A DNA stretch of 64,000 bases from an uncultured Candidatus Planktophila sp. (GCA_964576975.1 CAZNWM010000002.1:3811-67810); one strand, 5' to 3'. Positions 24,692-29,492 are shown, counted from the stretch's first letter. Numbers and translations are program-made. Notes: generated by a model from the sequence alone, not told the origin.

Positions 24692-25234
24692 ATGTCGTTA
24701 CGTATATCTGTGTATTGCTCATCTTCTCCAACTATTGATAAGAAATATCAAGATTTAGCATTTGAACTCGGAGAAGCAATTGGTGCACGTTCCTGGAATC
24801 TTGTTTCAGGTGGTGGCCATATTTCAATGATGGGTGCGGTGGCACGTGGGGTTAGAAAATCTGGCGGCCACACAATTGGCGTGATTCCACAATTGCTTGT
24901 AGATATTGAGTTTGCAGATAAAGATAGCCATGAATTACACGTTGTTGGATCAATGCGAGAGCGCAAAGGCAAAATAGAAGAGCTAGCCGATGCATTTATT
25001 GCTCTACCCGGCGGCCTTGGAACCCTCGAAGAGTTGTTTGAAATATGGGTTGGGCGGTTCTTAAATTTTCATCAAAAACCAGTTGTGGTGCTCGATCCAT
25101 TTGGTCTTTATGAACCACTCAAGACTTTAATTGATCATCTAGAAGTCGAAGGCTTCGTTAAACCGGGACAACGCGAGTTACTACATTGGTGCACAACAAT
25201 CGATCAAGCATTGGATATCTGTAGTGGCCGATAA
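24692..25234 (+). CDS. LOG family (TIGR00730-like) nucleotide phosphoribohydrolase
   Basis: VYCSSS, SGGG..MMG, MRERK and LPGGLGTLEE. Confidence 0.92.
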   Translation: MSLRISVYCSSSPTIDKKYQDLAFELGEAIGARSWNLVSGGGHISMMGAVARGVRKSGGHTIGVIPQLLVDIEFADKDSHELHVVGSMRERKGKIEELADAFIALPGGLGTLEELFEIWVGRFLNFHQKPVVVLDPFGLYEPLKTLIDHLEVEGFVKPGQRELLHWCTTIDQALDICSGR

Positions 25235-25673
25235 TCACATAGCGCTCACACTTACACTTCCCTGCAGCGCCGAACGTGCATGGGATGAAGTAACAAATTG
25301 GGAGAAGCAAGGCTCATGGATGTTACAAACTTCAGTGTGGCTGACATCTGAGATTGAAAAAGGGCCAGGGACGGAAATCGCAGCATTTACTGGTCCACTA
25401 CATAAACTCTTTCCACGATTTAAATTTTTAGGACTTCTAGACACCATGGTTGTTACAGATTGGCAACCACCACACATTTGCGATGTTTTGCATACTGGTA
25501 AAATACTTAAAGGAACAGGACGTTTTGAAATTATTGCAATAGATGATCACACTTCTAGATTTAATTGGTCGGAAGTCATTTGGGCGCCACGCATAATTTT
25601 CTTGATTGTCAGACCAGCTTTTTACGTTGGAGTATGGATTTCTCTGCATAGATTCGCTCGATCTCTTAGATAA
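25224..25673 (+). CDS. SRPBCC (START-like) family protein
   Basis: AWDEVTNWEKQGSW, DTMVVTDWQPP and H-T-G-x-x-x-x-G-x-G-x-F patterns typical of actinobacterial SRPBCC proteins. Confidence 0.75.
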   Translation: MADNHIALTLTLPCSAERAWDEVTNWEKQGSWMLQTSVWLTSEIEKGPGTEIAAFTGPLHKLFPRFKFLGLLDTMVVTDWQPPHICDVLHTGKILKGTGRFEIIAIDDHTSRFNWSEVIWAPRIIFLIVRPAFYVGVWISLHRFARSLR

Positions 25674-25736
25674 CTCTCACGATAAATCGCCTAGATGCGG
25701 GCAGAGGTTGGCCGTTCGCACAGTAAACTTAGATAC

Positions 25737-25928
25737 ATGAGCGAACCCAAAACTTTGTCAGAAGTTCTGGCTGCGCTCCCAGATGAAGAAAGAATTATTT
25801 TGGTTATGCATTATTTGCGATCTATGCCACCCAGTGAGATTGCTCAAAAACTAGGGGTTCCAGAGCGTTCAGTTACGGCAGTTATCGCTTCAGGCAAGGC
25901 TCGCCTGAGCAAAGTACTGGGCATTTAA
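25737..25928 (+). CDS. Stand-alone sigma-70 region-4-like HTH protein (63 aa)
   Basis: LAALPDEERIILVMHYLRSMPPSEIAQKLGVPERSV matches the ECF sigma region 4 pattern; TAAACT -10 box lies 7 nt before ATG 25737. Confidence 0.75.
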   Translation: MSEPKTLSEVLAALPDEERIILVMHYLRSMPPSEIAQKLGVPERSVTAVIASGKARLSKVLGI

Positions 25929-26021
25929 GCCCCCTTTTTCGATTTCATATATTCGCTCTAAATGCGAGATACTTCTCCCTTACAGAACGCTCTTCAATTA
26001 ACTTCCCTAAGGAGTCCCCAG

Positions 26022-26201
26022 ATGGCAGCTATGAAACCCCGCACTGGTGATGGTCCTATGGAGGTCACAAAGGAGGCTCGCTCACTCGTGATGCGAATTC
26101 CACTAGAAGGCGGCGGTCGTCTCGTAGTTGAAATGAATGCAGAGGAAGCAAATAACCTCAGCGCTGCATTACATGCCGCAGTCTCCCTCGTTAAGAAATA
26201 G
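26022..26201 (+). CDS. DUF3117 domain protein
   Basis: MAAMKPRTGDGPMEVTKE...RIPLEGGGRLVVE signature; SD AAGGAG at 26009-14. Confidence 0.92.
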   Translation: MAAMKPRTGDGPMEVTKEARSLVMRIPLEGGGRLVVEMNAEEANNLSAALHAAVSLVKK

Positions 26202-26237
26202 AGCGCATTTCTTCGTTTTTTAGTTAGCCTTTGCGTT

Positions 26238-27719
26238 ATGCCTAATGCCCAACTTGCGAGCATCTCTTCACGCCTCGAAGATATTGTCAGCGCAGATGCA
26301 ATTGCAGTTGGCTTCGTTAAGTCCGAAGAAAATGGATATGAATTAGTTGGCGCTATTGATGCAATAGCCTCATTAGAGAAATTCTTCGATGTTGATCTCA
26401 TCGACGAAATATCTTTTTTTCAACCCGCAGGAAAACCTGGTGAGATTCTTGAAATCCCAGTGAGTCAAAAAGCCACAAAAGCTGATCGAGTCTTTGTCAT
26501 TGGCCTTGGAGACCAAAGCACTCAATCCCATCGTCTTGCTGCAGCTAGCTTGGGTAGAAGGTTACGCGGCAAAAAAGTTAATGTTTCAAATTTATTGGCT
26601 AGCGATTCACAAGATATTCGCGCTCATGCGATTTCCGCTGTTTTAGGTTCATATACATGGACACTTAAGAGCGATGCAAAAACAGATCAGCCAACATTTA
26701 ACATTGTAGGCAAGAGCGAAAAAGTCATTGATGAAGCGACTGTGATTGCAAATGCAGTATGTCGCGCTCGCGATTTAGTTCACACTCCATCGAATATCAA
26801 GAATCCACTGTGGATGGCGCAACAAGCGCAGAAGATTGCTAAAGAAGGCAAACTCGCAATCAAGGTGTTGGCAGGCAAAGAACTCGCTCAATTTGGCGGT
26901 TTGCGTGCGGTAGGAAATTCATCTCCAAAACCTGGGCCCCGATTTATCCAGATTACATATACGCCTAAATCAACTGGAAAAAAAGTGCCACACGTTGTCT
27001 TAGTTGGCAAAGGAATTACTTTTGACACAGGTGGCGTTTCACTCAAGCGACCTTACGATTTGATGATGGCCATGAAGAGTGACATGGCTGGTGCATCCGC
27101 TGTTCTAAACGTTGTGGGAGCGCTACCGGATTTAAAGCCGCGAGTGAAAGTCACAGCACTATTGATGTGTGCAGAAAATGCACTCTCTGGAACTTCTCAA
27201 AGGCCAAGTGATGTGATTACTCATTACGGCGGAACAACAGTAGAAGTTCTAGATACTGATGCCGAAGGTCGTTTAGTTCTAGCAGATGGATTGGCATACG
27301 CCGATGCAAAACTTGATCCGGATTATTTGCTGGACATAGCAACCCTTACTGGTTCTGCAACGCTGGGACTTGGTCGCCAGTATGGCGCCATGTACACGCG
27401 AGATTTGAAGTTAGCATCGCAGTTAGTTGCAGCAGGTGAATCTTCAGGTGATCGCCTCTGGCACATGCCTCTGATTGATGATTATCAAGATTCACTTGAA
27501 AGTGACATCGCAGACTTTAATCACACAGCAGATAAAGGTGATTACTCCGCTGGCTCTGTCACGGCGGCGTTATTTCTTGAGAAATTTACTGGCAAAAGAA
27601 AATGGGTTCATCTAGATGTTGCAGGCACAGCACGAAGTGAAAATGACGCGGGGGAGTCTCCTAAAGGTGGGACTGGTTTTGGTGTTCGCTTATTAATTGA
27701 TTGGATTATTAGTTTATGA
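26238..27719 (+). CDS. pepA: Leucyl aminopeptidase (M17)
   Basis: VGKGITFDTGG, MKSDMAG, AEN, DTDAEGRLVLAD and DIATLTG. Confidence 0.92.
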   Translation: MPNAQLASISSRLEDIVSADAIAVGFVKSEENGYELVGAIDAIASLEKFFDVDLIDEISFFQPAGKPGEILEIPVSQKATKADRVFVIGLGDQSTQSHRLAAASLGRRLRGKKVNVSNLLASDSQDIRAHAISAVLGSYTWTLKSDAKTDQPTFNIVGKSEKVIDEATVIANAVCRARDLVHTPSNIKNPLWMAQQAQKIAKEGKLAIKVLAGKELAQFGGLRAVGNSSPKPGPRFIQITYTPKSTGKKVPHVVLVGKGITFDTGGVSLKRPYDLMMAMKSDMAGASAVLNVVGALPDLKPRVKVTALLMCAENALSGTSQRPSDVITHYGGTTVEVLDTDAEGRLVLADGLAYADAKLDPDYLLDIATLTGSATLGLGRQYGAMYTRDLKLASQLVAAGESSGDRLWHMPLIDDYQDSLESDIADFNHTADKGDYSAGSVTAALFLEKFTGKRKWVHLDVAGTARSENDAGESPKGGTGFGVRLLIDWIISL

Positions 27720-28345
27720 TGAAGATAGATCCACATGCATATGCAGAAAGTTTTATCCAAGAAGATGAATTTCAAATTCGTGCGCGTGCTCGCGGAGCAG
27801 AAGTTGGCGCCAATGATGCGACAACAGGTGTTGGTTCATACCTTCGCGCACTCGCACATCAGCTCTCTGCCCAATCAGTTGTAGAAGTTGGAACAGGCTC
27901 GGGAGTCGGAAGTCTTTGGATTTTAAGTGGAATGATTTCGAGCGGAACTCTTACCTCAATTGATGATGAAACCGAGCATTCACGTATTGCCAGAATTGCA
28001 ATGCAAGATGCAGATATTGCTCCATCACGCTATCGACTCATCACTAATTCAATTATGGACGTTATGACGAAGTTAACTGATCGTGCCTATGACTTAGTCG
28101 TCTTACGACACAATCCTGAAGACCTGACATACACAATTGAGGAAGCGCACCGCATTTTGCGAAGTGGTGGAGTTATGGTTATTGACGGATTTTTTGGAGG
28201 TGGCAAAGTAAGCGATCCATCACAGCGGGATCCGCGAACAATTGCACTACGCGAAGCTGGCAAAACCGTGAAAGGCGCCACAGATCTTTGGGTGAGCACA
28301 CTCATCACAGTTGGTGATGGTTTGTTAATCGCAACAAAGTTGTAG
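27716..28345 (+). CDS. O-methyltransferase (Rv1220c-like)
   Basis: VVEVGTGSGVG SAM-binding motif, LTSID and AYDLV. Confidence 0.85.
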   Translation: MMKIDPHAYAESFIQEDEFQIRARARGAEVGANDATTGVGSYLRALAHQLSAQSVVEVGTGSGVGSLWILSGMISSGTLTSIDDETEHSRIARIAMQDADIAPSRYRLITNSIMDVMTKLTDRAYDLVVLRHNPEDLTYTIEEAHRILRSGGVMVIDGFFGGGKVSDPSQRDPRTIALREAGKTVKGATDLWVSTLITVGDGLLIATKL

Positions 28346-28358
28346 CAGGATAAGCGCC

Positions 28359-29492
28359 ATGAAGTTTCGCTCTCGAAAATCCAAAGTGCCAACATATGCG
28401 CCATGGTGGAACTCTCAAGATTTTCCACGTTCCAATAGAGGAGTCACTCCTGGCACACTCGTTGTGCTTGCAATCATCGCTGGAATAATTGGTGGAGCAC
28501 TCGGCATCAATGCATCAGGCGGTTTTTTTGGCGCCAAAGCTAATTTAGTTTCTGCTTCAAATTCAGTTGAACGCAAACCTGATTCGGTTGCTGGTTTAGC
28601 AAATCGCGTCCTGCCATCTGTGGTTTCAATTACGACAGCTGCCGGAAGTTCTGGTTCAGGATTTATCATCGATAGCTCAGGCTTTATTCTGACAAATAAT
28701 CATGTGGTTGAAGATGCCGCACTATCGAAGGCAAAGATTGTTGTCACGCTTAATAACGGTCAAGAATTTGAAAGCAGGATTGTTGGTCGAGATGCTTCTT
28801 ACGACTTAGCAGTGCTGAAAATTCTTGCTACAGGGTTGCCTGCTCTTCAATTTGGCGACAGTGACAAAGTTGCAGTCGGCGATTCAGTTATCGCCATTGG
28901 TTCACCGCTTGGATTATCTGGAACAGTGACACTCGGCATCATTAGCGCAAAAGACCGCGCTGTAACTGCCGGTGGTTCAGCGGGTGAGAGCGCATTTATT
29001 AATGCGCTACAGACAGATGCAGCAATTAATCCTGGCAATTCTGGTGGACCATTGATTGACACCACAGGAGCAGTTATCGGAGTTAACTCCGCTATAGCAA
29101 CTCTTAGCGGATCATTGAATTCTCAAGCAGGATCAATTGGTTTAGGTTTTGCAATTCCAATTAATCAAGCAAGAAAAACAGCTAATCAATTAATCACAAC
29201 TGGTAAAGCGTCATATCCTGTAATGGGTATCTCAATCGACATGAACTTTGCAGGACCTGGCGCCAAGATAACAACAACAGATGGTGCAATTCTTCCTGGT
29301 GGTCCAGCACAAAAAGCTGGCCTTAAGCCGGGGGATTTGATTATTGAATTTGGCGGCAAAGCAATTGGCAATCCTGATGAATTAATTGTTGCTATTCGAG
29401 CCAGAAATATTGGAGACCGTGTGGAAGTTAAGTTCAAACGCGGCAGCAGCACACGATCAGCGACTGTCACGCTAACTGCTGGCAAGAACTAA
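28359..29492 (+). CDS. htrA: HtrA-like trypsin serine protease with PDZ domain
   Basis: TM anchor, LTNNHVV, DLAVL, QTDAAINPGNSGGPL and a C-terminal PDZ. Confidence 0.93.
   Translation: MKFRSRKSKVPTYAPWWNSQDFPRSNRGVTPGTLVVLAIIAGIIGGALGINASGGFFGAKANLVSASNSVERKPDSVAGLANRVLPSVVSITTAAGSSGSGFIIDSSGFILTNNHVVEDAALSKAKIVVTLNNGQEFESRIVGRDASYDLAVLKILATGLPALQFGDSDKVAVGDSVIAIGSPLGLSGTVTLGIISAKDRAVTAGGSAGESAFINALQTDAAINPGNSGGPLIDTTGAVIGVNSAIATLSGSLNSQAGSIGLGFAIPINQARKTANQLITTGKASYPVMGISIDMNFAGPGAKITTTDGAILPGGPAQKAGLKPGDLIIEFGGKAIGNPDELIVAIRARNIGDRVEVKFKRGSSTRSATVTLTAGKN

Follow-up and report, generated by a model that had tools for sequence, protein, structure and literature searches.

We describe a gene for a free-standing sigma region-4 (sigma-4) domain in a 64,000-nucleotide stretch of DNA, hereafter the window, from an uncultured Candidatus Planktophila sp. 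(GCA_964576975.1 CAZNWM010000002.1:3811-67810). The interval 25737..25928 on the forward strand is a real, intact gene under selection for a domain of this kind. Databases label the 63-aa product a sigma factor, but our results suggest that it is probably neither a sigma factor nor the remnant of one, and that it probably serves as a transcription accessory protein.

Results

The gene begins with an ATG at 25737 and ends with a stop codon at 25926-25928, so that the interval holds 63 codons and the stop. A first-pass annotation, made from the sequence alone, had given the interval as 25724..25928; the length of 63 aa and the sequence stand, but the start does not, as 25724 is the first base of the TAAACT box described below. 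An alternative in-frame ATG at 25695 would give a protein of 77 aa, and the extension that it adds (25695..25736, forward strand) lies outside the conserved gene. Across 21 orthologous loci, 3 to 53 residues are added ahead of the conserved Met/Val, and this stretch varies in length as well as in sequence; we therefore take the 63-aa reading to be the gene. Calls of 63-64 aa are common among database members. An SRPBCC-like ORF upstream ends at 25673, 63 bp before the ATG. The description of the protein as a stand-alone domain without region 2 also holds, with only region-4 families found in Pfam and the upstream frame not conserved.

The identity of the domain is clear. The strongest Pfam match is Sigma70_r4_2 (PF08281; E 5e-11, 42.5 bits, cut-off 25.7), which covers profile positions 4-53 of 54, and Sigma70_r4 (PF04545) also matches (34.7 bits, cut-off 24.1), while a Pfam search of the 63-aa protein returned no family from regions 1-3. 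NCBIfam sigma models align through their C-terminal third only (TIGR02937, positions 110-164 of 165) and all remain below their cut-offs, the best with 39.7 against 42.9. Of the regions that characterize a sigma factor of the sigma-70 family, region 4 is present and region 2, which is responsible for core binding and -10 recognition, is missing; hence, the 63-aa protein cannot act as a sigma factor.

A structure prediction, as proposed in the first-pass annotation, agrees with this assignment. The AF2 model, based on a 29-row family alignment, has a mean pLDDT of 87.6 and contains four helices (residues 7-12, 16-27, 32-39 and 43-61) in the four-helix architecture of sigma-4 with its helix-turn-helix (HTH). 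The best Foldseek matches are sigma-4 domains (SigF 8jzt, SigH, SigL, SigE and SigR) with TM scores of 0.72-0.82; the E-values reach only 3.5e-3 at best, a consequence of the very short domain. A comparison with 48,161 chains by VIA-align gave 22 chains with Z 8.1-10.2, of which 21 are sigma-4 domains, including SigF, sigmaE, SigR, BldN, SigW and SigH; the sole other chain at a Z of at least 8.1 is UPF0122 (1xsv; Z 8.3). LuxR/NarL-type domains, KorA and the sigma-like domain of PhyR (Z 7.2) form a lower tier at Z 6-7.4. A similar ranking was obtained when the family profile was run against PDB sequences: FliA scored 45 bits, SigF 42, SigW 36, SigR 29, Mtb SigE 28 and UPF0122 19.9 (E 0.004). 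Identity of the 63-aa protein to region 4 of SigF is 32-36%.

The gene is a constant feature of the order. The search for orthologues that had been recommended at first pass, performed with a family profile, detected a single match per genome in 151 of 151 genomes of the order (one family, 12 genera), a recurrence well beyond chance, and the gene is present in 144 of the 144 high-quality genomes. None of the 151 matches contains an internal stop, and all are in open frames of 62-172 aa. A search with the single protein found the gene in 22 of 24 genomes of the genus, the other two being 79% and 41% complete. A word-indexed search of proteins yielded 63 relatives (42-97 aa), with the distant members clustering under the names Ca. 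Nanopelagicus and Nanopelagicaceae, one of them as a "sigma factor-like helix-turn-helix DNA-binding protein".

Our set of orthologues consists of 51 unique coding sequences from 54 loci, which are kin and mostly of one genus, so that counts from this set overstate independence. The products are 61-73 aa in length and 63-66 aa in 44 of the 51. Median dN/dS is 0.20 (interquartile range, 0.12-0.27) by the Nei-Gojobori method for 251 of 1,275 pairs, namely those with dS between 0.2 and 2, with 1,020 saturated and 4 near-identical pairs dropped. Values for the window's gene against its four closest relatives are 0.08-0.14.

Searches beyond the order reached full-length sigma factors and nothing resembling the free-standing domain. 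At E 1e-10 or better, an exhaustive search of representative proteins retrieved 30, of which 29 are 34-105 aa long; the one long representative (432 aa) has several tandem sigma-4 repeats and falls outside the family. Below this level, the matches are ordinary sigma factors. Four proteins among the weaker matches of this search (P0094, P0100, P0104 and P0106; 240-432 aa) contain 3-4 tandem sigma-4 repeats. In a class-level draw, the 20 genomes that belong to the family gave matches of 94-106 bits, in frames of 66-111 aa; the best score in the other 280 genomes was 50.8 bits, in a 405-aa frame. Five outside matches that were cut out proved to be WhiG-type sigmas and ECF sigmas carrying GVPEGTVKARLSRGR. 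A search of 300 additional genomes of the phylum gave at most 49 bits, in frames of 177-507 aa, the top match being a SigF gene flanked by anti-sigma and anti-anti-sigma genes. Overall, about 580 other Actinomycetota genomes yielded full-length sigma factors only, with no free-standing relative outside the order. Six genomes flagged as unpublished (G030, G038, G191, G196, G202 and G402) enter some of the tallies in this work as negative rows only, and no locus or alignment was taken from them. The family is specific to one freshwater actinobacterial order, whose named members are Ca. Planktophila, Ca. Nanopelagicus and Nanopelagicaceae. Proteins of this general kind may recur in other lineages, as Bacillota, Bacteroidota and phages contribute Atlas clusters of 58-68-aa sigma-4-only proteins, which serve here as a lead only.

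A second conserved feature is located immediately upstream of the start codon. The -10-like box TAAACT (25724..25729, forward strand) stands 7 nt before the ATG and may be the promoter of a leaderless mRNA. A TANNNT hexamer is present 6-8 nt before the start codon in 50 of the 51 unique orthologous loci, compared with 405 of 10,200 random positions (4.0%) in the same loci. The spacing is 6, 7 or 8 nt in 16, 20 and 14 cases, respectively, and the variants are TAACCT (16), TAAACT (11), TAATCT (10) and others (13); a G is found directly 5' of the hexamer in the listed sequences. The lone exception, L050, has a purine-rich stretch at this site instead. An SD-like 4-mer at -16..-4 occurs in none of the 51 orthologues. 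A consensus scan of 25100..26400 gave no two-hexamer promoter and no terminator; as the scan requires a -35 hexamer, a -10-only promoter is invisible to it, and the promoter claim rests on conservation and not on the scan. The conserved hexamer and the lack of an SD word support the earlier annotation of a leaderless-type promoter belonging to the gene itself, and we infer from this conservation a -10-only promoter from which a leaderless mRNA would be made.

Contigs from RNA libraries cover the sigma-4 ORF in two of four runs (from two studies) at a depth of about 3-11, although assembled contigs give no strand, start or expression level and may include DNA carry-over. One contig of 151 nt covers 25753-25903 with 2 differences. 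Contigs of a relative that cover the ORF are 1,125 nt and 400 nt long, and the 400-nt contig bridges into the downstream DUF3117 gene; in runs X4 and X6, DUF3117 alone is covered. A 4-bp hairpin (GGGC/GCCC) followed by CCTTTTT lies across the stop codon of the sigma-4 gene at 25915-25939. A T-run follows the stop codon in only 7 of the 51 orthologues, and a conserved terminator is not evident.

We then compared the domain with what is known of -35 recognition by sigmaE. Lane and Darst (PMC1540707) attribute base-specific contacts to R176, S172 and R171, a contact with the T methyl opposite a conserved A to F175, and contacts with the backbone to R149 and Y156; R176 is described there as conserved across group IV sigmas. 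On the basis of the strongly conserved P-x-x-[TS]-V anchor and an ungapped alignment to actinobacterial ECFs, sigmaE residues R171, S172, F175 and R176 correspond to family positions 47, 48, 51 and 52. The recognition helix of the HTH (codons 43-56, ERSVTAVIASGKAR; 25863..25904, forward strand) aligns without gaps to GVPEGTVKARLSRGR of actinobacterial ECF sigmas, and residues 43-54 (ERSVTAVIASGK) are the helix quoted in the first-pass annotation, where it was described as non-basic.

This description is supported: the basic residues with which ECF sigma-4 domains read bases are missing almost without exception from the 51 orthologues. Position 47 (R171 in sigmaE) has 11 residue types and is basic in none of the 51; position 48 (S172) is A in 33 of 51; position 51 (F175) has nine residue types and is F or H in none; and position 52 (R176) is S in 28, Q in 11, A in 4 and another residue in 8, being basic in only one. 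An acidic residue occupies one of these four positions in 31 of 51 orthologues, and 36 of 51 have no K, R or H anywhere in positions 47-52. The domain segment (positions 6-61) has a mean net charge of -0.35 and is at 0 or below in 40 of 51, versus +1 to +4 in all nine true sigma-4 control domains; the segment of the window's own protein, at +1, overlaps the low end of these controls. Group-3 sigma-4 helices (for example, those of FliA and WhiG) also have few basic residues. The equivalents of the backbone-contacting residues are kept, with R19 (R149) and Y26 (Y156) each found in 47 of 51, and other basic positions are also conserved (R/K44 in 49, K/R54 in 51 and R56 in 50 of 51). Thus, the 63-aa protein has the domain family and fold of region 4 of ECF and group-3 sigmas (sigmaE of E. 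coli, 2h27; SigR of S. coelicolor, 5fgm; mycobacterial SigF, 8jzt; and FliA), and shares with them the LPxxxR motif, the HTH and the R149- and Y156-type residues. Unlike these sigmas, it has no region 2 and has not kept the base-reading residues at the positions of R171, S172, F175 and R176, and the domain is neutral to slightly acidic. On these alignments, it is very unlikely that a -35 box is read as ECF sigmas read it. With an intact HTH and with R19, Y26, R/K44, K/R54 and R56 conserved, the protein may still contact DNA in an unspecific or otherwise organised way.

The genomic context is equally stable. In 14 of 14 loci from 12 genera, the gene order is (LOG)-(SRPBCC)-sigma4-DUF3117-pepA-methyltransferase-(htrA)-tatB/mrp, with the sigma-4 gene directly upstream of DUF3117 and co-directional with it in every case and SRPBCC present in nine. 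The gap between the sigma-4 gene and DUF3117 is 7-139 nt (50 of 51 loci, in which a DUF3117 start was found). In the window, the DUF3117 gene (59 aa; Pfam DUF3117, 98.1 bits) is at 26022..26201 on the forward strand. Of 61 genomes of the class, 60 have DUF3117, and in 27 of 27 DUF3117 loci from other families no sigma-4 ORF lies within 1.5 kb; six-frame translations of DUF3117 loci, searched with a profile, gave matches in only three loci, all from the sigma-4 gene's own family.

The gap contains a conserved two-box promoter-like motif of DUF3117 at 25940..25974 (forward strand), consisting of CGATTTC, 17 nt and GCGAGATACTT. The CGATTTC / GCGAGATACTT motif is kept across the order with a spacing of 16-17 nt. 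Other families of Actinomycetia, which have no sigma-4 gene there, possess a TTTCC-like box, about 17 nt and GGGATAAT at 50-80 nt upstream of DUF3117. Given this shared motif, DUF3117 is probably a transcription unit of its own with an older promoter, and the proximity of the two genes is not in itself a sign of a functional tie. An operon or physical link with DUF3117 was considered in view of the invariant adjacency, but was set aside as DUF3117 has an older motif of its own. In one locus from another genus (L045, genome G092), the 3' end of the sigma-4 gene is 7 nt before the ATG of DUF3117 and overlaps a -10-like box of that gene (GATAAT, 6 nt before the ATG); DUF3117 looks leaderless in this genus.

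The first-pass annotation had placed the gene about 2.4 kb from the site where sigE-rseA is missing, and this is indeed the case: the O-methyltransferase gene ends at 28345 and htrA begins at 28359, leaving the sigE slot empty in the window. These two genes (27716-29492) have the same direction and are 13 bp apart. No ECF gene lies between the methyltransferase gene and htrA in any of 14 loci of the order. In other families, an ECF gene is found between the methyltransferase gene and htrA/tatB/mrp in four of five loci; the exception is a small genome (G213) with an empty slot, which is also without the sigma-4 gene. The methyltransferase gene was on the strand opposite to DUF3117 in all five of the other-family loci examined.

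The resident sigma factors comprise a primary sigma and a SigH-like ECF, whose gene precedes that of a ZAS-type anti-sigma in a genome of the genus; a further ECF, accompanied by a 215-aa membrane protein, occurs in some genomes. Among the resident sigmas, the nearest paralogue of the 63-aa protein is a 438-aa sigma with a C-terminal membrane extension (33-36% identity, E ~1e-4). In genome G007 (L086, 2399..3715), regions 2 and 4 of this sigma precede a long C-terminal portion that includes a hydrophobic segment. All five complete genomes checked encode this sigma; no copy was detected in the assembly to which the window belongs (91% complete). According to PMC12817590, each genome has two to four sigma factors, a count that may include the 63-aa gene.

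Discussion

The sigma-4 fold is kept and the base-reading residues are lost; the most likely mode of action, which we propose tentatively, is therefore one of protein contacts on the transcription machinery, that is, sigma-4 docking without promoter reading. Sigma-4 domains dock on the beta-flap tip helix, and they are targets of anti-sigmas and of activators. The 63-aa protein, with its retained fold and backbone-contact residues and without -35 base reading, would occupy a site that is normally taken by sigma-4 domains, the first candidate being the beta-flap tip of RNA polymerase, and would tune initiation without choosing promoters by their -35 box. A role as a beta-flap competitor was among the possibilities named at first pass. 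A prediction of the complex between the 63-aa protein and a 131-aa beta-flap segment from the organism's own rpoB scored 0.07 against a mark of 0.32; the prediction had no controls and is evidence neither way. Against docking at this site, a constitutive flap competitor would be expected to harm all sigma factors.

The intact HTH and the conserved residues R19, Y26, R/K44, K/R54 and R56 could also belong to a small autonomous DNA-binding protein, either a regulator, possibly dimeric in the manner of GerE/LuxR-type proteins, or a nucleoid-type binder of low specificity. Isolated sigma-4 domains do bind -35 DNA, as in the region-4/DNA crystal structures of sigmaE and SigW, and the predicted fold also resembles LuxR/NarL-type DNA-binding domains and KorA, at Z values below those of the sigma-4 matches. 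The gene always adjoins a conserved promoter-like motif; a regulator might perhaps act at its own promoter or at the neighbouring promoter of DUF3117. However, within a single genus the base-contact positions are variable, many members have acidic residues there, net charge is mostly at or below 0, and the DUF3117 motif is older and exists in other families without the sigma-4 gene. Moreover, no conserved operator-like repeat is found upstream of the gene besides the -10 box, and a dimerisation element is not evident. We consider such a DNA-binding protein somewhat unlikely, although it is the main alternative.

A more specific form of docking is suggested by gp33 of phage T4, a late-transcription co-activator that replaces sigma-4 on the beta flap without binding DNA. 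A cellular counterpart of gp33 would be a sigma-4 domain acting in trans on the beta-flap or on another sigma-4 docking site; it could make transcription by the minimal set of 2-4 sigmas largely -35-independent, or could couple the polymerase to another factor. The sigma-4 gene appeared in the same lineage that lost sigE-rseA. The comparison is a working analogy only, between small proteins in sigma-4's place that do not read promoters: unlike gp33, the 63-aa gene is cellular and lineage-wide, its binding to the flap is conjectural and it has no known clamp-type partner. T4 gp33 is absent from the listed fold and PHROG matches, an absence that does not exclude homology. We regard a true counterpart of gp33 as rather unlikely.

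A role outside transcription, through binding of another protein or of RNA as proposed for UPF0122/YlxM, is distinctly unlikely. UPF0122/YlxM proteins are likewise small, stand-alone and sigma-4-like in their HTH, and the structural match to 1xsv is level with those to many sigma-4 domains and accompanied by a sequence match. Atlas clusters of 58-63-aa sigma-4-like proteins in which UPF0122 accounts for 51-86% of members provide a further lead, and a lead only. On the other hand, true sigma-4 sequences (FliA and SigF) score far above UPF0122, with which the sequence relation is weak, UPF0122/YlxM differ in length and genomic context, and no SRP genes are linked in the locus.

The first-pass annotation also proposed an anti-sigma decoy and one half of a split sigma factor, for neither of which did we find support. 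As a decoy, the protein would mimic a sigma and titrate an anti-sigma in the manner of PhyR, a protein whose sigma-derived domain serves protein binding and not promoter reading. Candidate targets would be the membrane extension of the 438-aa sigma or the ZAS anti-sigma whose gene neighbours that of the SigH-like ECF, and many of the best fold matches come from anti-sigma complexes (SigF, SigW, SigD, SigL, CnrH and FliA), with PhyR itself in the lower tier. PhyR, however, combines a receiver with sigma-2-like and sigma-4-like parts in a fusion and imitates one particular resident sigma, whereas the 63-aa protein has no receiver, no close resident paralogue (36% identity at best) and no anti-sigma gene linked in any of the 14 loci. 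In five complete genomes we found no RsbW-size HATPase_c_2 protein and no STAS_2 protein, and sigE-rseA is absent from its usual slot. Titration of an anti-sigma is thus quite improbable.

In SigO-RsoA of B. subtilis, the functions of a sigma are split between two polypeptides, and a complete region 4 without region 2 is what one half of such a two-piece sigma would look like. The lone region-2 partner that was to be looked for should then be encoded elsewhere. Each of five complete genomes of the genus has 3-4 Sigma70_r2 (PF04542) matches above cut-off, in frames of 202-677 aa, and the ECF-sized frames carry an r4_2 match of their own; none of the matches above cut-off is in a short frame, and the sole short-frame match, in one genome, has 17.6 bits in 45 aa. 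A very divergent partner could escape this Pfam search. The window's own genome (91% complete, 100 contigs) has one r2 match, in a 216-aa frame. Unlike SigO-RsoA, therefore, the 63-aa family has no region-2 partner that we could find and is missing the -35-reading residues, and a split sigma is highly improbable.

Almost no weight can be given to a decaying leftover of a sigma gene such as the lost sigE, for which the empty sigE-rseA slot nearby and a SigE-family model as second-best NCBIfam match (far below its cut-off) might speak: the gene is present in one copy without internal stops in 151 of 151 genomes, its product has a stable length of 61-73 aa and not the variable one of a decaying fragment, dN/dS is 0.20, and the start codon and -10 box are conserved. 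A remnant of sigE in particular was rejected, because the gene is not at the sigE position and region 4 of Mtb SigE scores 28 bits against 42-45 for FliA and SigF.

The closest matches outside the order are alternative sigmas, and the donor of the domain would therefore be some alternative sigma: probably, the C-terminal domain of an ECF or group-3 sigma became a separate gene at the base of the order, inserted upstream of the older DUF3117 promoter. The donor cannot be named because ECF and group-3 types score alike. A phage origin was left without support, as tblastn of the 63-aa protein against 50,697 phage records gave no match at E 1e-3 and PHROG matches were weak, the best (27.6 bits) being to a sigma-factor family.

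This freshwater actinobacterial order is among the most abundant bacterial orders of fresh waters, and cultures now exist. A gene acquired by such genomes and retained in every one of them is probably important. We found no description of this free-standing region-4 family in the literature, and we know of no studied cellular example of the protein class, which is hidden by automatic annotation as a sigma factor; the same label may inflate sigma counts. If the protein does dock on the polymerase, a globally abundant lineage would have in it a new general transcription accessory factor, and if the protein binds DNA, it would be among the very few regulators of these cells.

Two further observations concern the C terminus of the protein and its neighbour. 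The C-terminal L-G-[LI] or [FL]-[ND]-F-P was considered as a sliding-clamp-binding tail and set aside, as it can equally be read as an ordinary helix C-cap with a hydrophobic residue after it; L61 is common to the 63-aa family and ordinary ECF sigmas. The predicted fold of DUF3117 (pLDDT 83.7) has three strands and a helix and is weakly similar to PUR-alpha, PC4/Whirly and COMM domains (Z 4.5-5.7), which may reflect chance sharing of a common arrangement; nucleic-acid binding by DUF3117 is at present a lead only. DUF3117 has a very high depth in the RNA-library contigs, a signal that is common to other organisms, and is near-invariant across the class, with 28 invariant columns in 26 sequences.
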